Virus record (IMG/VR): IMGVR_UViG_3300017963_000014
Span: 37,797 to 101,796 of that record
Origin: a virus
Length of the DNA stretch: 64,000 nt
Reading direction: 5' to 3' (one strand)
Of this stretch, positions 22,001 through 54,505 are shown piece by piece. The notes below the pieces were generated by a model. The model was not told where the DNA came from. It worked only from the letters and a program-made list of their open reading frames with translations, and did no database searches. Each line of letters starts with the position of its first letter. The stretch's first letter is position 1. A program made the position numbers and the translations under genes.

Positions 22001-23764
22001 TCAGCCGTTTCGGTTTCGACCGGAGAAGCGCTCGGTGACCACGCCGATCGCGCTCCCGGCCCACTTGCTCACGGGCTTCTCCGGCTCCGGCGCCGGCGGG
22101 GTCGTAGTCGCCCCCGGCGCGCTCTCGCCCCTCGCCTCGGCCCGGATCTTCTCCGTCCGCTCGCCCTGCTCCTTGACCTCCTTCTCGAGGCCCGCGAGCC
22201 GATCGTCGATCGGGGCGAGGGCAGACTTCACGGCGTCGGCGACGATCTTACCGACGTCGACTTCGGGGGAAGCCGGGGGCGGCGGCGCCTCGGTCTCCGG
22301 ATGATTCGAGGGCTCGGTCGGGGCCGGGGTCTCCCCGCCCTCCCGCTTCTCCGTCGAGGCTTCCGGGGGCTTCGGGGGTTCCTCGCTCGGGGGCTTCGGG
22401 GGCTTCTGGGGCTCGGGACTGGGCTGATTCTCGGCGCCCTCCCGCTTCTCCGTCGTCTCCTGCTTCTGTTCTGGGCTCGTCATCTTATCCTTCCTCCTCT
22501 TGATGAAAAACAACTCCTCCTCGTTCGCGCCGGCGTCGACGACGGAGAACTCCTCGACGACTAGTCCGACGAACCAGTTCTCGATCGGGTCTTCCTCGCC
22601 CTTCTCGACCCGCTCGAAGTTCCTACGCTTCGCGAGCGCGAGCTCCTCCGGTCCGTCCGGCCCGACCTCGTCAGCCGAGACCCGGCGGGCGCGCCCGCCG
22701 AAGGAGAGCCCGTTTAGCTGCCCGTTCCGGACCTTCTCGACGATCGGGGGGTCGTCGGAGAAGAGCTGGACGTACCACGTCCCGTCCGCGATCTTCTTCG
22801 TCCCGCCGTCCGGGAGCGGGAAGTCGAGGTCGGTCGGCGCGATCACGTTCTGGATCAGCGTGACCTTGTCCGAGACGTCCTTCTTGTGCATCAGCCCGAT
22901 CGTCCCGAAGTCCCGCATAAACCCTTCGTTCGCCCGCGCGATCTCGGCCTTCGTCTGCGCGTCCCCCTCCGAGTCCGCGACGTTCGGCTTCGCGACGATA
23001 CCGAAGAACCGGACCTCCTTCGAAGGGTCCTCCCCCTCGTCCTCGGACTTCGCGACGAAAATCTCGCCCCGCTTCGCGAACCGGACGAACTTCGAGAGCT
23101 CGTCCTTGAGGTCCGCGGGAAGGAGCGCGTCGAGCGGGTCCTCGGGGTCGAAAGAGGGCTCGATCCCGAAGCGTAGCTCCGCCCGAACGATCCGCTCGTG
23201 CACGATCGCCTTCGACCGCTCGAGCTCGTAAGTCCCGGCGTTCTGCTTGAACCGTACCCGCGCGTTAGCCGCCCGCTCCTCGGTCTCGACCGGGAACTTA
23301 AGGTTCACGGGGTCGGCGTAGAGGTTCTCCTCCGTCGGACCGTCCGCGGGGAAGGAGAGGTTCTCGCCCTTCCCCTCGAGCGCCTCGATCCCCCAGCGCT
23401 CGGCGCGCGCGGCCTGCGCCTCCCGCTTCTCCTCGTTCGAGGCGTCCGCGTCCGGTACCGCCCGGCGGACGGGCTCGTCCCGCCGCTCGCGGGGGGTCCC
23501 GACGAGGGCGACGACGTCGCGCGAGAGCTTCTCCCGCCGGAGCGAGCCGTCCTCGAAGTCCCCCTCCGCGCGGACGCGGGCGAGGATAACGTCCCGGCGC
23601 TGCCGGACCTCGCTCGGCTTCAGCCCGTGGTTGACGGCGAACGCCTTCGCCGCGGCGACCCCCCGGAACTTGTCGAGCGCGAGCTCGAGCGCCGCGACGC
23701 TCTCGACCGTCAGGTTGAAGGGGAGCAGGAGCGCGTTACCGCGCGCGATCTTCTCCTCGTCCAT
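22001..23764 (-). CDS. Prohead protease (XkdF-like) fused to scaffold
   Basis: FFGIVAKPNVADSEGD...EIARA..FM...IGLMH...GTW...EKVRNGQLNGLSFGG...EFSVVDAGAN; Pro/Glu-rich and coiled-coil C-terminus. Confidence 0.8.
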   Translation of the reverse strand: MDEEKIARGNALLLPFNLTVESVAALELALDKFRGVAAAKAFAVNHGLKPSEVRQRRDVILARVRAEGDFEDGSLRREKLSRDVVALVGTPRERRDEPVRRAVPDADASNEEKREAQAARAERWGIEALEGKGENLSFPADGPTEENLYADPVNLKFPVETEERAANARVRFKQNAGTYELERSKAIVHERIVRAELRFGIEPSFDPEDPLDALLPADLKDELSKFVRFAKRGEIFVAKSEDEGEDPSKEVRFFGIVAKPNVADSEGDAQTKAEIARANEGFMRDFGTIGLMHKKDVSDKVTLIQNVIAPTDLDFPLPDGGTKKIADGTWYVQLFSDDPPIVEKVRNGQLNGLSFGGRARRVSADEVGPDGPEELALAKRRNFERVEKGEEDPIENWFVGLVVEEFSVVDAGANEEELFFIKRRKDKMTSPEQKQETTEKREGAENQPSPEPQKPPKPPSEEPPKPPEASTEKREGGETPAPTEPSNHPETEAPPPPASPEVDVGKIVADAVKSALAPIDDRLAGLEKEVKEQGERTEKIRAEARGESAPGATTTPPAPEPEKPVSKWAGSAIGVVTERFSGRNRNG

Positions 23765-37245: not shown

Positions 37246-38061
37246 CTAGCTCCCGCCCTCGTCGAGCTCGACCCGGACGCGGAAGGGGACGACGCGGAGG
37301 AGGATCAGCTCGGGGTCGCGCTCGAGCCGAGCGAGCGCCTCCGCCCGGTCGACCGTTCGTAGGTTATCCTCGAGGTCCCTTCGGGGGAGGAGGACGTACT
37401 CCGCCGGGGGCGGATCGGCGGCGGCGTTCAACTCCGCTCGAACCGCGGCGAGCGCGACTTGCCTCCGCTCCTCCTTCCCGACGAGCTCGCGCGCCTCCGC
37501 TACCCCGCGGTCCCGCTCGGCGAGCGCGGAGGCGGAGACCGCGACCTCCGCCCCCTCGATATATTCCGGGAGCGCCTCCTCGGGCTCCGGCGGAACGAGC
37601 GCGGAGTCCCCGGGCCCGTCCGCCGGCGGAAGCTCGACCCCGCGGAGCGCGTCCGCGAGCGCCGGGTTGAACGGCGGTCCCCCGCGCTCCCGAGCGGGAG
37701 TCCCCGGACTCGGGGGCTCCGTCGGCCTCCGCGCGAGGAGCGTCACGACCGCCTCGCCCGGGCGGTCGGAGCCGGGGAGGGAGTTCGGCTTCAGGAGCGC
37801 CCAGACCGAGCCGCGCCGGACCGTGAGCCCGTCGAACGCGAGCTCGACCGCCCGCGCCCGGTCCCCGTCCGCGTCCTCGAACTCGACCGCCTCCCCCCGC
37901 TCGAGCGCCGCCGCGACCGCGTCGTCGATAACCCGCGCGAGCTCCGCGTCCGAGAGCGTCGGCGGAACCTCCGCCCGCGCGCGGAGCCGCTCGACCGCGT
38001 GCCTGCTAACGTACCGCCTCGGTCCGCCGCTCGGCGCGGGCGCCCGGTGAGCCATCGCCAT
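37246..38061 (-). CDS. Hypothetical protein
   Basis: GGAGG RBS; N-terminal YVSRHAVERLRAR motif; C-terminus paralogous to the next gene. Confidence 0.6.
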   Translation of the reverse strand: MAMAHRAPAPSGGPRRYVSRHAVERLRARAEVPPTLSDAELARVIDDAVAAALERGEAVEFEDADGDRARAVELAFDGLTVRRGSVWALLKPNSLPGSDRPGEAVVTLLARRPTEPPSPGTPARERGGPPFNPALADALRGVELPPADGPGDSALVPPEPEEALPEYIEGAEVAVSASALAERDRGVAEARELVGKEERRQVALAAVRAELNAAADPPPAEYVLLPRRDLEDNLRTVDRAEALARLERDPELILLRVVPFRVRVELDEGGS

Positions 38062-39923: not shown

Positions 39924-40541
39924 CTATACAGATACTCTCCGAACGCGGACGCGGTCGCGGAGTCCGAGTCGGATACGGGAGTTCCCGAGGTCGAGCTCGA
40001 GAGACCAGGTATCGGTCCGGGAGACCCGCTCGACGGTCTCCTCGCGGCCGGGGGCCCAGGCGATAGAGCCCGGGGGCTCGAGTAGGACGTCGCCCGGTCG
40101 GACCTCGGCCGCGGGGAGTTCGAGTTCCCGCGGTTCCCGCGTCTCCGCGAACGGGACTCGGAGCTCGCCGTTTCGGGCGAAGCCGAGCAGCAGCCGCCCG
40201 AGCTCGCCGGCTAGGGCGCGGTCGAGCGCGAGCTCGGGCGAGAGGTAGAGCCGGGGTTCGCCGGAGCTCTCCCGCTCGAGGTAGCAGGTATCGGCGGAGG
40301 CGTCCTCGAACTCGTAGCCCGAGCCGCCGTCCGAGCGCTCGCGGAGGGTCGGCTCGACCCGCCGGAGGTTCGCGACGTTCGCGGAGGTCAGGACCCGCTC
40401 GCTCCCGTCCCTCTCCTCGAGGACGGCGAGCTCGCGCCCGAGCGCCACCAGGCGGTAGCGGGTCCGCTCGGCGGCGGGGTCGCTCGACGGCGACTCGAGG
40501 AGGTCGCCCGGCTTCAGTTCGGTTCCGTCCCGGTCCCTCAT
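39924..40541 (-). CDS. Modular hypothetical protein (SH3-like repeats)
   Basis: True start MRDRDGTELKPGD at 40541 with AAGGAGG RBS. Confidence 0.6.
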   Translation of the reverse strand: MRDRDGTELKPGDLLESPSSDPAAERTRYRLVALGRELAVLEERDGSERVLTSANVANLRRVEPTLRERSDGGSGYEFEDASADTCYLERESSGEPRLYLSPELALDRALAGELGRLLLGFARNGELRVPFAETREPRELELPAAEVRPGDVLLEPPGSIAWAPGREETVERVSRTDTWSLELDLGNSRIRLGLRDRVRVRRVSV

Positions 40542-40830
40542 CGGTCTCCCTCCTTGGCGTCTAGGAGAACGCTTTCGCGGTCGAGCGCGGCGTCGAGCTC
40601 CGCCACCGTCCGATCGAGCGCATCCGCCATCGGACCGGCGAGTTCCTCGCAGGCGGACGATTGACCCCTCCACCTGTAATCATCGGCCTCGGCGACGCGA
40701 AATATCTCACGGGCGGTTACACCGCTACGCATGAGATCGAGAACGTCGCTAGACGTTCTCAGTTTGCCTAGCTCGATAGGTTTCGGCGCCCTCTCGCGGG
40801 CGTCCCGGTCCCTCATCGGTCTCCCTCCTT
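40526..40830. repeat. 30-bp perfect direct repeat bracketing one gene
   Basis: CGTCCCGGTCCCTCATCGGTCTCCCTCCTT at 40526-40555 and 40801-40830. Confidence 0.9.
40538..40816 (-). CDS. Hypothetical protein (inserted cassette)
   Basis: 92 aa, begins MRDRD and ends KEGDR through the repeat; lower GC than its flanks. Confidence 0.6.
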   Translation of the reverse strand: MRDRDARERAPKPIELGKLRTSSDVLDLMRSGVTAREIFRVAEADDYRWRGQSSACEELAGPMADALDRTVAELDAALDRESVLLDAKEGDR

Positions 40831-42735
40831 CCGTACGGATACCCTCCTAACGGGGAGCGAGCCCGGGAGTCGCCAGCGCCCGGGGCGGTCCCGGAGCCGG
40901 AGGATAGACTCTCTCCCGTCGTCCGAGCGGCTCACCGAGTCGACCGCGACCGGTCCGTCCTCGCCGAGGTCGAGGCGGTCGTCCGGCCGGATCTCGCGCG
41001 CGGGGACCTCCTCCCCGTCCCCGGTAGAGGGGAAGCGGACCTCGACGCCGGCGGGGGCGGAGACGCCGAACTCCCCGTCCCCGGTCGGGGGGAAGCGGAG
41101 GCGACGGGCGCCCGAACTTCCGACCCGGGGACCGAAGGATAGACCCTCGCGGGTTAGGGTAAGCTCCGCGACCCCGATCTCCGGCCAGCCGGGGCGGACC
41201 TCCTCGGCAGTGACCCAGCGCCAGCCGTTCGCCTCGAGCCGCGCCTTCAGGAGCGAGAGCTCGCGCTCCCCGGCCCCGCGGAGGTCGAGCGCTAGGCTCT
41301 CCCCCTCCGCGAAGCCCTCGAAGCGCGGGAGGTCCTCGAGCGCGACCGGGGCGTCGTCCGGGGGTAAGTCGCCGGTCCAGGAGGCGTCGAGGAGCGCTCG
41401 GAGCCGGTCGAGTACGCCAGCCCGGGCGAGGGTCGCCCGGTCCGCGAGGATCGAGCGGAGCTCGGCGTAGACCCGCCTCAGCTCCGCGGAGACGGCGTCC
41501 GCGACCTCGACCGTGCTTCGACGCTCCGGGGCCCGTCCGGGGGTGTCGAGCGCGAGCTCGAGGTCGGGGTGTAGCTTAAGGAACACCGTATCTAGATCGC
41601 CTTCGACCTCGCGGATGCGGACCTCCCGGAGGTTCGGAGACGGGTGCCCGTAGAGCTCGTTCGAGACGACCGCGTGCGTCAGACCGTCGAGCCGGAGCAG
41701 GTCGCCCGGGACGAGGTCGCGGACGCGCTTACGCCCGCGGGGGATCCGGCCGCAGTCGCGGGAGGTCCGAAGGACCTCGAGCGCCGCCCCCTCGAGCCGC
41801 TTCCGGTCCTCCGCGCGGAGGAGACCGCCGTTCCCGGTCAGCGGGGAGAGGCGATAGCCGACCTCTCGGGCCAGCGAGAGGAGGTTCCCGAGCGCGTCGA
41901 GCGCGGCCCGCCCCTCGCCCGAGAGGTTCGCCGCGGGGACGAGCGCGCCGCCCTCGAGTACGAGACCGTCGACCTCTACCCGCTCGGACGGATCTACCCG
42001 ACCCTCGACTTCGTCCGGATCCGCGAGCTCTCCGGTCTCGGCCCAGCGGAGGAGAACTCGCGCGAATTTACGCGCGGTCTCCGGCGAGAGGTCGCGGAAG
42101 AAGTACTCGGAACCACCGGCGACGACCTCCGGTAGACCGAGACGAAGGTACGGTCGTTGCCTCCCGCGAAACCCCGCGTTCCCGCTCCGGAGCCGCATCG
42201 GGTCGCCCTCGATGTCCTCGAAGCGGAGCCCCCCTCCGTGCTCGTCTACCGTCGACTGGAAGTTCGCCGCGGAACCGGCGGGCTCGCCCTCGGGGGCCGG
42301 CTCCTCGCTCGGGGCGCCCCGAGGCTCCGGGACCGCGAGCGCGCCTCCCTCGCCCCAGGCGAGGACCGCCGCGCCGACCTCGCGCGCGAGGCGGCGGTCG
42401 AGGACGACGACCGGCGTCTCCCCGAGGACGTGGACCTGGAGTAGGTCCCGCTCCTCCCCCGGGAACTCCTTTAGGAACGCCGGGTCGCCCGCGGCGTCGG
42501 CGAAGTCGAGCGAGTCGCGGTGGATGTTCCGCCCCAACGGGTTCGCCCGGGCGAACTCCCCGCGCTCGAGTGCGACGTAGGAGACGGCGATCTCCGCACT
42601 CCCCCCGAACCGCCCGAGGAAGCCGTCCTCGCCGAGCGCGGTGACGCGGAGCGGGACTAGGTCCGAGGCGCGCTCGAGCCAATCGCCGACGGTTAACTCG
42701 CCGAACTTATCGATCTGCTTCGATTTATTTATCAT
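40813..42735 (-). CDS. Large modular hypothetical protein
   Basis: 640 aa, AAGGAG RBS; repeated SH3-like and F.D..GD...L..W...G.L modules. Confidence 0.65.
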   Translation of the reverse strand: MINKSKQIDKFGELTVGDWLERASDLVPLRVTALGEDGFLGRFGGSAEIAVSYVALERGEFARANPLGRNIHRDSLDFADAAGDPAFLKEFPGEERDLLQVHVLGETPVVVLDRRLAREVGAAVLAWGEGGALAVPEPRGAPSEEPAPEGEPAGSAANFQSTVDEHGGGLRFEDIEGDPMRLRSGNAGFRGRQRPYLRLGLPEVVAGGSEYFFRDLSPETARKFARVLLRWAETGELADPDEVEGRVDPSERVEVDGLVLEGGALVPAANLSGEGRAALDALGNLLSLAREVGYRLSPLTGNGGLLRAEDRKRLEGAALEVLRTSRDCGRIPRGRKRVRDLVPGDLLRLDGLTHAVVSNELYGHPSPNLREVRIREVEGDLDTVFLKLHPDLELALDTPGRAPERRSTVEVADAVSAELRRVYAELRSILADRATLARAGVLDRLRALLDASWTGDLPPDDAPVALEDLPRFEGFAEGESLALDLRGAGERELSLLKARLEANGWRWVTAEEVRPGWPEIGVAELTLTREGLSFGPRVGSSGARRLRFPPTGDGEFGVSAPAGVEVRFPSTGDGEEVPAREIRPDDRLDLGEDGPVAVDSVSRSDDGRESILRLRDRPGRWRLPGSLPVRRVSVRKEGDR

Positions 42736-42747
42736 CTTTTCTTCTCC

Positions 42748-43359
42748 TTAGCAGCCGGCGAAGAAGGCGCCGAAGAATAGTAGCGAGCCGAAGGCGGAGA
42801 GCGCGAAGACCGCATAGAACACCGCCCGCGCGAGATCCCCGCCGTACCTCGGGTCCTCCCGAAGCGGAGGCGGCTCGGGTAACTTCCTCTCGGCCGCCTC
42901 CTTAGCCGCGCGCAGCTTCCCCGCGTGAATCGCCTCCTCCGCCTCCCTTAGCGCCTCCGAGAGCGCGTTACCCGCGTCCGGCCCGCGGTAGACGCCCCCG
43001 CCGCCGGTGAGCGCGGGCTCGAGATCCCGGAGCCTCCGAACGAGCTTAGAGAGCGCCTCGCCCGCTCCCGAAGGATTCGGTAAGGGAGGTCGGATCGGAA
43101 GCCCGGTCGCCTCTAACGAGGGCGTACCGTTCGGGAGTAGCTCCCCCCTCGATTCGAGGTACCGGGCGAGGGCCCAGAGGTCGCAGAGCTCGCGCTCGAC
43201 GCTAGAGCCCGGTCTCCGCCCGTCCTCCGCCCGGCGCCAGACGGTACCGGAGCCGAAGTATCGGTATAGTCTGTCGTCTCGGGTATCGAAGACCTCGAGC
43301 TCGCAGCTCCCGGAGCGCGCGCCCTTCGCGCGGACGAGGCGGAGGGGTCGTTCGCTCAT
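42748..43359 (-). CDS. Hypothetical protein with C-terminal TM helix
   Basis: AVFYAVFALSAFGSLLFFGAFF tail. Confidence 0.6.
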   Translation of the reverse strand: MSERPLRLVRAKGARSGSCELEVFDTRDDRLYRYFGSGTVWRRAEDGRRPGSSVERELCDLWALARYLESRGELLPNGTPSLEATGLPIRPPLPNPSGAGEALSKLVRRLRDLEPALTGGGGVYRGPDAGNALSEALREAEEAIHAGKLRAAKEAAERKLPEPPPLREDPRYGGDLARAVFYAVFALSAFGSLLFFGAFFAGC

Positions 43360-43841
43360 AAGGGAACTCCCTCCCTCGACGCGGCGAGGACCCGCTCGAG
43401 TCGCTCCCTTAGCGTCCGCTCGAGCCGATCGAGTAGCTCGCGATCCCCGAGCGAGGCCTCGAGCGCGAGCGCGTGGATCTCCGCCGCCGTCGCCGGCCCG
43501 AACTCGCTCAGGATAGGGGGGACGAGCTCGCGGGCGACCCAGGCGTCGCCGGAGATATCTAGGATAGCGTCGAAGCGCCTCCCCGCGAGCCGCTCCGCGA
43601 GCCGTCCCGGGGGGTCCGCGCGGAAGTGCTCGACCTCCGACCCGTTCGCGAACCGGAGCTTCGTCCCCGAGCCGCCCTCGATCGTCGCCGGGACCGCGCG
43701 ACCGAGCCGCGCGCAGGTCGACTCGTACTCCTCGAGCAGGTACCGGGGGTTCGGGAAGATCGCCGCGAGCCGGAGCCCGGGGACCCGCGTAGCGAGGCGG
43801 ATCAGCTCCTCGAGGCTGTCGGGGAGGCGGGGGTAGCTCAC
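43356..43841 (-). CDS. Terminase-ATPase-like fragment protein
   Basis: GTG start at 43841 coupled to the upstream stop; KLRFANGSEVEHFRADPPGRLAERLAGRRFDAILD; no Walker A. Confidence 0.5.
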   Translation of the reverse strand: MSYPRLPDSLEELIRLATRVPGLRLAAIFPNPRYLLEEYESTCARLGRAVPATIEGGSGTKLRFANGSEVEHFRADPPGRLAERLAGRRFDAILDISGDAWVARELVPPILSEFGPATAAEIHALALEASLGDRELLDRLERTLRERLERVLAASREGVPL

Positions 43842-45304
43842 TTCGACCCCCCGGTGCCCGCGCCCGCGGGGGGCTCGAGGTAGAGGACCGCCTTCGGCGC
43901 GAGCTTCAGGGAGAGGGGGTTCGCGTCGGGGTCGAGGACCCGCCCGGAGGCGTCCCGGATCTCGTACGCGGCGGAGAGCGGCTCGGAGGCCCCGAGCTCC
44001 CGGAGCGCGCACTCGCGGAAGCGCGCGAGCGGCTCGCCAAGGCCCCCGAGGACCTCGACGATCGAGCCCTTGAGTTCGTCTCGCCCGCTCGGGAAGTAGT
44101 TCCGCGGGAGGTCGGCGACGACGCGGAGTAAGATCGGGTCCGTCCGCGGAGGGTCGCCCTCGTCCGCGAGACCCTCTAGTGAGCCTAACTTCCGCTCCTC
44201 CCTCGAGGGTTCCGCGAGCCCGTCGACGGGTTCCCCCGGCTCGACCGCGTTCTCGAGGAGCGCCTTCGCCTCGGGGAGCGTCCAGGGGGTTCCGTCCTCC
44301 TTAACGAGGGGAACGCCGAGGATCTCGAGCTCGCCGTTAGCCGGCTCTAGGGTATCGCCCGCGAGTCGACGGGCGACGCGGAGGAAGCGGAGTACGTTCG
44401 CGGGGGTACACTTTAGCCGCCGCGAAGAGATAACGGGCTTAGGAAGTAACGGAGAGTCGCTCGAGATCGAGATTCCCCCGATCTCTCCGTTCCGAACGCG
44501 CTCGTAGGTCTCGGCGTCGACCTCGACCTCGAGGCGAAGGACGTCCTCGCGACCGGCCTCCGACGGTATCCTCCGGGACTCCGAAACTTTCAGAATCTTC
44601 AGTAAGTCCGGTGCATTCGGGTCGGATGGAACGAGCCGAACCTCGCTCGAGAGGGACGAGGTATCGAGAACTCGATCGTCGCTCGGCTCCGGCGGGACCG
44701 GGAGCTCCGAGCGGAGCTTCTCGAGCGCGGCGAGCCCGTCGGCGGCGCAGTCGAGGGCGACGACCCAGCGGCGGCCGTCCCAGCGGCGGTCGCGCTTCGG
44801 GTCTAGGTACCAGAACTCGTCGCCCGCGCGCCCGAGCTCCGGCGGTCGGTCCGGGTGAGTCGTGTTTATCAGGTAGTTCGCGACCTTCGAGACCCGCCGG
44901 CGGTCGACGTCCGGTAGCGCGGTGTAGAGGTCGGCGTAGGTTACGCCCCGGAGCCGCTCGCCCGCGTCGTTCCCGGTCTCGCGCGCCTCGCGCGCTACGC
45001 GGAGTAGGGCCTCGCGGATCTCGGCGAACTCCCAGACCCCGATTTGAGACCCCTCGGATTCGAGGTCGAGCTCGACCTCCCGCGGGAGCGGCTCGAGGAC
45101 GTCCTCGACGTCCCGTTCGACGTAGGGGGCGAGCTCGTCGACCCCCCGGTTCGCCCGGCGGGTTAGCTCGCCCGCGATCCAGGCGTCGGACTCGAGGTAG
45201 TCGCCGCGGACGGTTACGGCGCGGATCCGGCCCTCGGTCGCGCCGGGGGCGCGGACGGAGGCGGTTAGGGTCAGGGTCAGCTCGTAGCGGCGGTCGCTAC
45301 CCAT
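43838..45304 (-). CDS. Multidomain protein with C-terminal ubiquitin-like (DUF2604-like) domain
   Basis: Start MGSDRRYEL at 45304 (GAGGA RBS); C-terminus EPLARFRECALRELG...AYEIRDASGRVLD...LYLEPPAGAGTGGSK. Confidence 0.55.
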   Translation of the reverse strand: MGSDRRYELTLTLTASVRAPGATEGRIRAVTVRGDYLESDAWIAGELTRRANRGVDELAPYVERDVEDVLEPLPREVELDLESEGSQIGVWEFAEIREALLRVAREARETGNDAGERLRGVTYADLYTALPDVDRRRVSKVANYLINTTHPDRPPELGRAGDEFWYLDPKRDRRWDGRRWVVALDCAADGLAALEKLRSELPVPPEPSDDRVLDTSSLSSEVRLVPSDPNAPDLLKILKVSESRRIPSEAGREDVLRLEVEVDAETYERVRNGEIGGISISSDSPLLPKPVISSRRLKCTPANVLRFLRVARRLAGDTLEPANGELEILGVPLVKEDGTPWTLPEAKALLENAVEPGEPVDGLAEPSREERKLGSLEGLADEGDPPRTDPILLRVVADLPRNYFPSGRDELKGSIVEVLGGLGEPLARFRECALRELGASEPLSAAYEIRDASGRVLDPDANPLSLKLAPKAVLYLEPPAGAGTGGSK

Positions 45305-45740
45305 CCCGTTCCTCCTCGAGCGGCTCCGCGCGTATCCCCCAGGTGAACGTCCTCCCCCGTCCCCTCGTAGGGTACGGGAGCGATCTCGCCCGTCTCCACC
45401 CCTCGGAGCGGTCCCCGCCCTCCGGCGACTCGAGCCGGAAGACGTCGCCCGGGCGGAGGTCCTCGAAGTCGACCTCGCGCTCCCCCGGGGCGCCTGTCTC
45501 CTTCGAGACGCCCTCGGTCCGAACGAAAACCCGGACCGCCGGGAGGTCCTCGGGGAGGGGGTCCCAGCGGTGCCCGGGGTCCTCGACGAAGACCGCGGAG
45601 GTAGGCAGGGAGACGACCCAGCCCCCGGGGACGCGGAGGCGGGCGAAGTCGTCGAAGCGCTCGAGCGCGGCGGGTAGGATAAAGCTACCCTCGTCGGACT
45701 CCTTCTCCGATATCGGAATCTCGTTATCAATCTCTCTCAT
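45297..45740 (-). CDS. Hypothetical protein (SH3-like C-terminus)
   Basis: AAGGAG RBS; ARLRVPGGWVV and FEDLRPGDVFRL. Confidence 0.6.
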   Translation of the reverse strand: MREIDNEIPISEKESDEGSFILPAALERFDDFARLRVPGGWVVSLPTSAVFVEDPGHRWDPLPEDLPAVRVFVRTEGVSKETGAPGEREVDFEDLRPGDVFRLESPEGGDRSEGWRRARSLPYPTRGRGRTFTWGIRAEPLEEERDG

Positions 45741-51537: not shown

Positions 51538-51744
51538 CTATCCCGGATGAGTTACCCGCACCTCGATCCGCTCGACCGGAACGACGAGGTCGAGGTCGAC
51601 CTCGTACTCGATCCCGACCTCGTCGGTCGGGACGTTCCGCGCGGGGCAGACCTCGTTCAGGCAGACGAACTTAGGCCCAGAGTCGTAGAGCCTGGAGCCG
51701 CAGGCGACGCAGAGCGGGCCCTTCGAGTAGCGGATCTCGGGCAT
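51538..51744 (-). CDS. Small zinc-ribbon protein
   Basis: MPEIRY start overlapping the RNR stop; CVACG...CLNEVC. Confidence 0.55.
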   Translation of the reverse strand: MPEIRYSKGPLCVACGSRLYDSGPKFVCLNEVCPARNVPTDEVGIEYEVDLDLVVPVERIEVRVTHPG

Positions 51745-54485
51745 CAGGAGCAGCCCGTCGTCTCGCCGCAGGTCGGGCAGCGGTGGCACGCCCCCGCGGG
51801 CTCGGTTATCGCGCCGCAGGCGGGGCAGGGCGGACCGGAGTCGAGCTCCGCGGCCCTCCGCTCGAGCGCCTCCTCGATACTCGCCGGCGCCGGCGCCTCG
51901 CCCCCGCGGCGACCGCCGGGGAAGCGGGACTCGACCCAGCGAACGACGTAGTCTAGCGGGGAGGTCGCGGACCCTATCTCCGCGTTGTCCGTGAACCCCG
52001 CCGGGTCGAAGCGACTCCGCCGGAACTTCTCGAGGATAGCGGACCAGGGGACGCCGTACTGTAGCGCGATCGAGGCGAGGGTAGCCCAGGCGTCGGTCAG
52101 GCCCCGGACGGTGCTACCCTCCTTCGCCATCAGGACGAAGAGCTCGCCGAGCCTCCCGTCGGGGTAGAGTCCGGCGGTTACGTACCCCTCGTGTCCGGCG
52201 ATCTCGAACTTGTGCGTCCTCGACTCCCGCTCCGACGGGAGCTTCTCCCGCTCGCCGGCGACGCGCGGGGGGCTCTCCGTCAAGAGGCGGTTAACGCCCT
52301 CGATTACCCTCCGGTCCTCCTCCCTCCGTACCTCGGCGTACGGGTCGCTCGCCGCGGGGCGGAGCGGCTGCGTCCCACGGCAGCCGTCGCGGTAGACGAC
52401 GACGCCCTTCAGGTCGAGCCGGTGCGCGGTCCGGAAGACCGCGTCGACGTCCTCGACCGTCGCGGAGTTCGGGAGGTTAACGGTCTTCGAGATCGCGCCC
52501 GAGAGAAGGGGTTGGACGGCGGCGAGCATCTTGACGTGCCCCTCCCACGAGATCGACCGCCCGTCCTCGCCGGCTGGGAGCGCGGCGTCGAATACCGGGA
52601 GGTACTCCTCCCGTACCCCGCCAACCGAGCCGGTCTCCGCGAGGTTTCGAATGATACGAGCCCGGTCCGACGCGCAGTACCCGAGTCGCTCGAGCGCGGG
52701 GTCGACGCTCCGGTTGAACTGAAAGACTACCCCTCCGCCCGCGAGCTCCTTCCGGGTAGCGAGCGCTAGCGCGGGCTCGACCCCGGTGGTGTCGCAGTCC
52801 ATCATCAGCGAAGTCGTCCCAGTCGGCGCGAGGAGCGTCACCTGCGCGTTCCGGAATCCGCTGTAGCTACCTTCGAGGACGTCGTCCCAGATCCGCTCCG
52901 CGGCCGCGCGGAGCTTCTTACCCGCCTCGCCGACGAAGTCGTTCCGGGAGGCGCTCGCGTGGAAACCTAGCACCCTCCGGAGCGAGTCCGCGTTTCGTTC
53001 GTACGCCTCGAACGCCCCCTTGACCCCCGCGACCTCCGCCGAGCGGCGGTAGGCGGAGGCGGTCAGGATAGACGTTACCCCCGCCGCCGTCGCCCGCGCC
53101 TCGTCCGAGTCGTAGGGGAGGCCGGCGGCCATCAGGAAGGCGCCGAGGTTCGTGTACCCGAGCCCGAGCGGGCGGAGCCGTCGAGAGTTCCGCTCGATCT
53201 CCGGCGTCGGGTAGGAGCTCCGGTCGACGAGGATATCCTGCGCGAGGATCGCCGTATCGACCGCCGCGACGAGGTCCCCGACGTCGAGCGACCCGTCCCC
53301 CGCCTGGAACCTCCGGAGGTTGAGCGACGCGAGGTTACAGGCCGAGTCCGGTACGAAGACGAACTCCCCGCAGGGATTGGAGCCGATGATCGGGCCCTCG
53401 GCCGGACAGGTGTGCGCGCGGTTCGTCGCGTCCGCGAACTGGAGCCCGGGGTCCCCGACCTCCCAGGCGGCGCGGAGGAGCTTCGCCCAGATCTCGCGGG
53501 CGTCGACGGTCTCGGCGAGCGAGCCGTCGCGGCGGTTCCGGAGGTCCCAGGAGAGCCCGCTCTCGACCGCCTGCATGAAGGCGTCCGAGACCCGGAGCGA
53601 GTTGTTCGCGTTCTGGAACGCGACCGTCCGGTAGGCGTCGGAGTCCATCCCCGAGCCGAAGCCCGCGGCCTCGAGCGCCCGGATCTTCGCCTCCTCCCGG
53701 ACCTTGCACTCGACGAACTCCTCGACGTCCGGGTGCTCGTCGTCGAGAACGACGATCTTCGCCGCCCTTCTCGTCCTCCCCCCGCTCTTGATCACGCCGG
53801 CGAAGGCGTCGAACCCGCGCATAAAGGAGACCGGGCCCGAGGCGATCCCGCCGCCGTTCAGGCTCTCGGCGGAACCGCGGAGCGGCGAGAGGTTTACGCC
53901 CGAGCCGCCGCCGTACTTGAAGATCCTCCCCTCGGTCTCCGCGAGCCTCATGATCGACTCGAGCGAGTCGTCGACCGAGTTGATGAAGCACGCGCTCGAC
54001 TGCGGCCGCTCCTCGATCCCGACGTTGAAGTAGACCGGCGAGTTGAACGCGAGCCGCTGCGTCCCGAGGAGGAACTGAAGCTCCTTACGGAAGATCGAGC
54101 GCCCCTCCTCGTCGAGGTACCCGTCGCGGAGCCCCCAGTCCGCGATCGAGTCGGAGATCCGGCAGATCATCGTCCAGACCGAGGACTCGCGCTCCGGCGT
54201 CCCGAGCCGGCCGCGGAGGTACTTCGAGGCGACGACGCGGACGGCGGTGTCGCTCCAGGAGACCGGAGCCTCGACCCCCGCCTGCTCGAAGACGACCCGC
54301 CCGTTCGTCGCGTCCTCGATCCGGACGTCGCGCCGGGACCAGGGACCGACGAGTTCGTAGACGTCGGCGGACTCCGGGACGAAGTACCGCTCGACGCGAA
54401 CGCGCCGTGCCTCCGACTCCCGGATCGGATTCGGGGCGACCTCCTCCATCACCTCTATCGGGTTCGGCGTGGATACGGACGACAT
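51744..54485 (-). CDS. nrdJ: Class II (adenosylcobalamin-dependent) ribonucleotide reductase with TSCPD domain
   Basis: FNSPVYFN, SACFI, GGRTRRAAK, SNPCGE, CNLASLNL, LAPTGT, GAISKTVN and YRDG motifs; C-terminal TSCPD and zinc ribbon. Confidence 0.95.
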   Translation of the reverse strand: MSSVSTPNPIEVMEEVAPNPIRESEARRVRVERYFVPESADVYELVGPWSRRDVRIEDATNGRVVFEQAGVEAPVSWSDTAVRVVASKYLRGRLGTPERESSVWTMICRISDSIADWGLRDGYLDEEGRSIFRKELQFLLGTQRLAFNSPVYFNVGIEERPQSSACFINSVDDSLESIMRLAETEGRIFKYGGGSGVNLSPLRGSAESLNGGGIASGPVSFMRGFDAFAGVIKSGGRTRRAAKIVVLDDEHPDVEEFVECKVREEAKIRALEAAGFGSGMDSDAYRTVAFQNANNSLRVSDAFMQAVESGLSWDLRNRRDGSLAETVDAREIWAKLLRAAWEVGDPGLQFADATNRAHTCPAEGPIIGSNPCGEFVFVPDSACNLASLNLRRFQAGDGSLDVGDLVAAVDTAILAQDILVDRSSYPTPEIERNSRRLRPLGLGYTNLGAFLMAAGLPYDSDEARATAAGVTSILTASAYRRSAEVAGVKGAFEAYERNADSLRRVLGFHASASRNDFVGEAGKKLRAAAERIWDDVLEGSYSGFRNAQVTLLAPTGTTSLMMDCDTTGVEPALALATRKELAGGGVVFQFNRSVDPALERLGYCASDRARIIRNLAETGSVGGVREEYLPVFDAALPAGEDGRSISWEGHVKMLAAVQPLLSGAISKTVNLPNSATVEDVDAVFRTAHRLDLKGVVVYRDGCRGTQPLRPAASDPYAEVRREEDRRVIEGVNRLLTESPPRVAGEREKLPSERESRTHKFEIAGHEGYVTAGLYPDGRLGELFVLMAKEGSTVRGLTDAWATLASIALQYGVPWSAILEKFRRSRFDPAGFTDNAEIGSATSPLDYVVRWVESRFPGGRRGGEAPAPASIEEALERRAAELDSGPPCPACGAITEPAGACHRCPTCGETTGCS

Positions 54486-54505
54486 CAATCCTCCTATTAT
54501 CTTCT

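Follow-up and report, generated by a model that had tools for sequence, protein, structure and literature searches.

A phage protein ending in a BilA-type ubiquitin-like domain: a candidate pseudo-substrate of bacterial ubiquitin-like conjugation

The stretch analysed here (the window) comprises 64,000 nucleotides, positions 37,797 to 101,796 of the virus record IMGVR_UViG_3300017963_000014, and all phage coordinates are those of the window. One gene on its (−) strand encodes a protein of 488 residues, P0001, whose C-terminal domain is a true homologue of BilA, the ubiquitin-like (Ubl) modifier of the Type II BilABCD (CEHH/6C) anti-phage operons. We infer that P0001 is a candidate competing pseudo-substrate, which would blunt the Bil system of the host, and give this function a probability of roughly 40%. 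The features that carry the argument are the following.

43838..45304 (−): whole gene of P0001, 488 aa; ATG at 45304–45302, TGA at 43840–43838
43841..44152 (−): C-terminal BilA/DUF2604-type ubiquitin-like β-grasp domain, residues 385–488, assigned by fold and homology
43841..43867 (−): tail AGAGTGGSK, residues 480–488, putative equivalent of the capped reactive end [AV]GAGG of BilA

The C-terminal domain and its relation to BilA

The AlphaFold2 (AF2) model of residues 385–488, calculated with a two-sequence alignment, has the topology β1-β2-α1-β3-β4-β5 (predicted local distance difference test, pLDDT, 77.6; predicted template modelling score, pTM, 0.67). In a Foldseek search of the Protein Data Bank (PDB), the top matches are 8tyx_A and 8tyz_B, the Type II Bil Ubl of Ensifer aridi (E 2–3e-6, template modelling (TM) score by target 0.88/0.84, root-mean-square deviation (rmsd) 1.7–2.2 Å). 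VIA-align over 48,161 representative chains also places 8tyz_B first (Z 12.7, rmsd 2.1, 83/83 residues, 26% identity), with the next best Ubl at 11.7. After E. aridi BilA, the matches are SUMO, ubiquitin, and NEDD8. The ESM Atlas's own model of residues 387–486 is closest to DUF2604 clusters (TM 0.71 by query, 0.84–0.85 by target) and then to SUMO, UBX, and YukD. A sequence-only reading of the window had proposed a DUF2604-type ubiquitin-like domain in the last 100 residues or so; AF2 and Foldseek give a β-grasp there, with E. aridi BilA as the best match, and VIA-align, hhalign, and the hidden Markov model (HMM) described below agree with this assignment. The β1–β2 hairpin of P0001 contains a 14-residue insertion that is absent from BilA and from P0002, the single homologue of P0001.

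BilA sequences were sampled from 301 Myxococcota genomes, which gave two DUF2604 loci. The gene order is CapP, CapH, DUF2604, Metal_CEHH (BilB), Prok-JAB (BilC), E1 in one of them (L083) and WYL regulator, DUF2604, CEHH, E1 in the other (L084). Together with four further relatives, these form an alignment of six DUF2604 proteins (A5), two of which come from verified bilA-bilB-(bilC)-bilD loci. Alignment of the P0001/P0002 pair to A5 by hhalign covers 82 columns at 33% identity (probability 96.7%, E 3.3e-10); as internal controls, residues 1–88 of P0001 and its middle region reach 0.1% and 0.3%, respectively. A second β-grasp in residues 1–88 or in the middle region was ruled out by hhalign. 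The HMM of A5 has one match in the whole phage genome, the P0001 Ubl (E 1.4e-6, 24.8 bits), and BLASTP of this domain with L084 BilA gives E 4e-6. The domain is also the only match to Pfam PF10790 (DUF2604) in the six frames of the genome.

The structure of E. aridi BilA (PDB 8TYX/8TYZ; Chambers et al., 10.1101/2023.09.26.559546) is, like the P0001 domain, a single β-grasp. The BilA motifs WE[IV]RD..G..L and LFL...GAGG correspond to YEIRDASGRVL and LYL..AGAG in P0001. The BilA family and P0001 further have in common the position of the Ubl at the extreme C-terminus, a Gly tail with a short non-conserved cap, and N-terminal extra domains, which are on record for BilA proteins (10.1101/2023.09.26.559546). 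Unlike BilA, P0001 is phage-encoded, and no match to bilB, bilC, or bilD occurs anywhere in the genome. It also differs by some 385 unrelated N-terminal residues, which have a counterpart in none of the cellular BilA found, by the hairpin insertion, by a Thr that interrupts or replaces the reactive GG, and by a score below the Pfam gathering threshold.

In BilA, a universally conserved Gly is followed by up to nine residues, which BilC trims before BilD adenylates the Gly (10.1101/2023.09.26.559546). The ends of 45 metagenomic BilA genes read [AV]GAGG plus 0–8 variable residues. P0002 ends AGAGG-SLA, in the exact register of the family, and P0001 ends AGAG-T-GG-SK. hhalign reads the Thr of P0001 as a one-residue insertion, which puts G485 at the reactive column. 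The Gly-rich tail capped by extra residues that had been noted from the sequence is thus present (AGAGTGGSK); inserted or substituted at the reactive position, the Thr (GAG-T-GG) would possibly make P0001 a poor or dead-end substrate.

The frame for a viral Ubl mimic is given by the Type I Bil system of Collimonas sp. OK412, in which Ubl conjugation acts as an anti-phage mechanism (Hor et al., 10.1101/2023.09.04.556158). Type I BilA has two β-grasp domains, unlike P0001, and the sole counter-measure discussed in that work is not a viral Ubl but a speculative role of deubiquitinase (DUB) domains that belong to siphophage tail-assembly proteins (10.1101/2023.09.04.556158). The literature searched contains no paper on an anti-Bil or phage-encoded Ubl and no viral countermeasure beyond this speculation. 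The ubiquitins of eukaryotic viruses (baculovirus v-ubi, giant-virus ubiquitins, pestivirus inserts) are similar in that a virus carries a copy of a host Ubl modifier, and they are the top fold matches in BFVD; they differ in being eukaryotic ubiquitin proper, from another domain of hosts, at 7–19% identity to the P0001 Ubl. No phage protein is among the significant BFVD matches.

Orphan copies and complete Bil operons

Profiles of PF00899 (ThiF), PF14464 (Prok-JAB), PF14455 (Metal_CEHH), and PF01398 (JAB) have no match in the complete 101.8-kb genome, and neither do the BilB and BilC proteins of L083 used as queries. The enzyme-family searches gave matches in control genomes for all but CEHH, which is rare; this provides some assurance for E1 and JAB. 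The P0001 Ubl is an orphan in the phage genome, because no ThiF E1, CEHH E2, or JAB match is found in it. From the letters alone, no E1, E2, or JAB gene had been seen in the window, and the negative result extends from the window to the whole genome.

A scan of JGI metagenomes gave 47 DUF2604 loci. In about 40 of the 47, bilB lies directly downstream; most of these 40 that extend far enough downstream contain bilD as well, together with bilC where the sequence covers at least 5 kb. In many of the loci L089–L125, bilC is on the strand opposite to bilA, 4–5 kb further downstream, and in L083 it lies between bilB and bilD; the order in the surveyed Type II loci thus differs from the bilA-bilB-bilC-bilD order reported earlier (10.1101/2023.09.26.559546). 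The open frames of several operon BilA genes (L105/L106:5479-6258, L114, L121, L129) are 147–259 aa long, with putative N-terminal extensions before a single β-grasp.

DUF2604 genes also occur outside such operons. The IMG/VR scan with A5 gave one viral contig, L086 (IMGVR_UViG_3300012532_000007; guanine plus cytosine (GC) content 74%), to which the metagenome locus L131 is identical. Its gene encodes a protein of 150 aa with a PF10790 score of 48.4 bits and AGAGG as its end. It is flanked by a PD-(D/E)XK nuclease on one side and by Rad52-like, helix-turn-helix, and VRR-NUC genes on the other, and the 40-kb record (62% complete) contains no ThiF or Prok-JAB match. In the 4.5-kb contig L128 (200–2626), a 112-aa DUF2604 gene that ends VGAGG-AA overlaps the start of GroEL and is followed by GroES, a weak TerS match, and phrog_6978; from this gene content, the contig is probably phage-derived. 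The adjacency of a Ubl and a chaperonin is unusual. L130 (1074–1819) encodes a 182-aa BilA with an N-terminal extension, then a BilB remnant of about 50 residues, then unrelated genes, and looks like a Bil operon in decay. L115 and L133 were left unclassified, being too short or ambiguous.

L086 and L128 resemble P0001 in their BilA-type Ubl, the lack of conjugation enzymes nearby, a non-structural phage neighbourhood, and a GAGG-type end. They differ in being small (112–150 aa) and above the Pfam cutoff, whereas the P0001 Ubl is the more diverged C-terminal domain of a 488-aa multi-domain protein. PHROGs contains no match to any of these Ubls.

Domain layout and genomic setting of P0001

An exhaustive phmmer search of 1.8 billion representative proteins gave three matches to P0001, namely, P0002, P0003, and P0004. 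P0002 (286 aa, ENA) is the sole true homologue. It aligns to residues 1–~215 and 385–488 of P0001 and is without the middle part; identity is 68% over residues 1–88, 86% over residues 118–191, and 61% over the C-terminal domain. P0003 shares only a module of 64 residues with P0001, and P0004 was discarded as a spurious cadherin-repeat match. Sequence searches of Pfam, PHROGs, and the PDB with whole P0001 gave nothing usable; its RBD_SIN1 and DUF2510 matches are sub-threshold noise. No match to whole P0001, the P0001 Ubl, or the L086 Ubl was found by tblastn in 50,697 deposited phages, and no relatives of whole P0001 in the IMG/VR and JGI metagenome scans. A word-indexed search with the Ubl domain alone gave no match, and BLASTP of P0001 against every open reading frame (ORF) of the phage gave no paralogue. 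The regions N-terminal to the Ubl are as follows.

44660..45304 (−): N-terminal conserved domain(s), residues 1–215, common to P0002 (70% identity over aligned residues)
44732..44953 (−): most conserved core, residues 118–191, 86% identical to P0002; helical, possibly winged-helix-like
44153..44659 (−): variable middle region, residues 216–384, absent from P0002, no family match
44228..44419 (−): module, residues 296–359, 47% identity with the otherwise unrelated 247-aa metagenomic P0003

P0002 keeps both ends of P0001 and is without the middle, so the minimal conserved unit is, as judged from this comparison, the N-terminal domain plus the C-terminal Ubl, with the middle ~170 residues as a presumed optional insert. 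Retention of both parts in P0002 despite the loss of the middle argues for selection on their combination. The module shared with P0003 points to domain shuffling among these ORFans. We read P0001 as a modular phage protein: its conserved N-terminal domain possibly binds nucleic acid or protein, its middle is a dispensable insert, and its C-terminal end is a BilA homologue.

The AF2 model of whole P0001 without an alignment (pLDDT 42) is too poor to use. For residues ~88–195, the neighbours of the Atlas model are DsrD, the winged-helix domain of SelB, Fur, and IclR, at a TM score by query of only 0.29–0.36. VIA-align on a low-confidence model of the same residues gives mixed helical DNA binders at Z ≤ 6.7, with Crp among the weak neighbours, and the DsrD profile scores P0001 at 12.5 bits, below its cutoff of 24.2. 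A winged helix in this region, suggested by these models and by the winged-helix-like segment of the sequence-only reading, is a weak lead and not a finding.

The record is that of an uncultured phage of 101,796 bp with direct terminal repeats, rated complete, and with a GC content of about 70%. Two metagenome runs, one from sediment and one from seawater, contain the DNA of the phage, and either may be its source; the search of sequencing runs gave no RNA run containing the phage sequence. The start codon of P0001 is backed by the N-terminus of P0002 and by a ribosome-binding site, GAGGAGG, 5 nt upstream of the ATG. The start overlaps the end of a 147-aa ORF upstream (ATGGGTAG), and the stop overlaps the GTG start of a 161-aa ORF downstream (GTGA), which suggests translational coupling between P0001 and the latter. 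Part of the 161-aa ORF looks terminase-like; as a terminase fragment it was rejected, having no similarity to the terminase of the phage.

45309..45317 (−): Shine-Dalgarno sequence GAGGAGGAA, read directly from the sequence
43356–43841 (−): 161-aa downstream ORF, no family match

The P0001 gene lies within a long, densely packed non-structural block on the (−) strand, near replication genes. The same block contains a class II ribonucleotide reductase (RNR) and a 5′–3′ exonuclease, then a run of ORFs without a family match. Scans of 39–50 kb for promoters and terminators gave no signal above shuffles. The RNR (51744–54488, (−) strand) has a TSCPD domain; its nearest cellular relatives are metagenome-assembled genomes of Myxococcota (~51% identity), followed by Acidobacteriota. 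Together with the GC content of 70%, these relatives may be taken as a weak hint to the host lineage. At 39924–42735 (−), ORFans of 640 and 249 aa and an intervening 92-aa ORF have similar endings (…RVRRVSV / …PVRRVSVRKEGDR) and no family matches. The structural module, with the terminase, the portal, and an XkdF-type protease, lies at 20–29 kb. The protease ORF (22001–23764, (−) strand; 587 aa) matches PF14550 at 1.2e-16; it contains a DUF6582 match (residues 148–202, below cutoff), Peptidase_S78_2 (XkdF; residues 249–361), and a long C-terminal extension, and is possibly a protease–scaffold fusion.

Proposed role and alternative explanations

The tail of BilA would play no structural part; its one known use is insertion into the active sites of the E1 and the deubiquitinase. 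The Ubl most likely acts on Bil-type machinery of the host, because this tail would serve only the Bil E1 and DUB and the phage carries neither. Engagement of the host enzymes is suggested because the tail is kept in both homologues and in the other phage-borne copies, and the architecture of P0001 would be compatible with these enzymes in principle, since N-terminal cargo domains have been described in BilA proteins of hosts. The P0001 Ubl may occupy BilC and/or BilD–BilB, or may be loaded in place of host BilA; the outcome would be less Ubl conjugation to virion proteins. A decoy or hijacker of host Ubl conjugation, as the sequence-only reading proposed, would fit an orphan Ubl that sits at the very end of the protein and keeps its enzyme-facing tail. 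Orphan DUF2604 genes recur in phage-like contexts, while cellular copies nearly always precede bilB and bilD, and this speaks for a pseudo-substrate.

Several observations weigh on the other side. PF10790 scores the P0001 Ubl at 11.9–12.1 bits against a gathering cutoff of 25, and a gap-free alignment puts T484 at the reactive Gly column. DUF2604 was found in only 2 of the 301 sampled genomes of Myxococcota, the phylum of the nearest RNR relatives, so the presumed target would be rare. This weighs against any Bil-directed role: the RNR relatives are Myxococcota, the Ubl scores better on a Myxococcota-type profile, and DUF2604 is rare in the sampled genomes of that phylum. The N-terminal 385 residues are most of P0001 and may carry the real activity, and if the host system attached so bulky a Ubl, the phage could be harmed. 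The predicted complex of the P0001 Ubl with a stand-in Myxococcota BilC scored 0.00 in a run without controls and is no evidence either way.

The strongest alternative, which we judge somewhat unlikely, is that the Ubl is never conjugated and serves, as integral UBL domains do, for interaction or oligomerisation within a middle-gene regulator or DNA-binding protein, with the activity in the N-terminal core and the Bil enzymes uninvolved. The core is the best conserved part (86% versus 61% for the Ubl), its weak structural neighbours are winged-helix DNA binders, and the gene lies within a non-structural operon; the Thr at the gap-free reactive position would also be accommodated, and bacterial Ubls are known to mediate self-assembly (PMC11601603). 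However, an integral UBL domain can stand elsewhere than at the C-terminus and has usually lost the Gly tail, whereas P0001, P0002, and the other phage-borne copies keep both an AGAGG-type tail and the terminal position.

Productive use of the host enzymes is a good deal less probable than such a module. P0001 would be matured and charged by them and would then be attached, together with its N-terminal cargo, to proteins of the host or the phage, from which the phage would benefit. The architecture of host BilA proteins with N-terminal cargo domains, the intact and capped tail (clearest in P0002), and the lack of an E1, E2, or DUB match in the phage genome are consistent with this, but no target or benefit can be named, the phage would rely on a host system that is rare in the sampled Myxococcota, and the reactive position of P0001 is altered.

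Slightly less probable still is a neutral remnant, that is, a captured host bilA with an N-terminal domain, functionless and drifting. Drift would explain the departure from the family consensus at the reactive position, the insertion in the hairpin, and the finding of one homologue only among 1.8 billion representative proteins. The reading frame is nevertheless intact, with a strong ribosome-binding site and translational coupling on both sides; the N-terminal domain and the Ubl are 61–86% conserved in P0002 across a domain deletion; none of the cellular BilA found contains anything like the N-terminal domain; and orphan copies recur in other phage-like contigs.

The sequence-only reading had also seen a prohead-protease-like fragment within P0001, which rests on the following stretch.

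44465..44503 (−): 13-residue motif ERVRNGEIGGISI, 7/13 identical to the XkdF-type protease of the phage; not significant

This part of the reading was not supported: the pairwise E is 0.065, a search against the full set of genome ORFs does not recover the similarity (no match at E ≤ 10), and residues 205–385 have no match to Peptidase_S78 or any other Pfam family at E ≤ 5, so we treat the likeness as chance. The composite picture, in which the decoy would also contain a piece of the prohead protease as part of an island of protein fragments, is very improbable: the middle region gives no signal for Peptidase_S78 or S78_2, the neighbouring ORF is not similar to the terminase, and P0002 does without the middle.

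Returning to the competing pseudo-substrate, the orphan copies allow a wider proposal, which we advance tentatively and regard as rather doubtful: phages would have repeatedly captured the BilA tag for use against Bil, here fused to a cargo of ~385 residues, and host BilC and BilD/BilB would bind or load it unproductively, or conjugation would be redirected. For the family, the data show that the Pfam DUF2604 model misses diverged viral members, and the difference between 24.8 bits on the Myxococcota-derived BilA profile and ~12 on the general Pfam model may hint at the host. Bil systems are the clearest bacterial counterpart of antiviral tagging by ISG15 and ubiquitin, and a phage BilA homologue with an enzyme-facing tail and without the enzymes is a concrete, clonable candidate countermeasure. 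In its fused form, it is a natural 'Ubl with cargo' for probing the tolerance of the Bil E1, E2, and DUB. If the proposed role is true, no viral inhibitor of ubiquitin-like conjugation in bacteria would have been described before P0001, and the interference of viruses with ISG15 and ubiquitin would have its parallel in bacteria.

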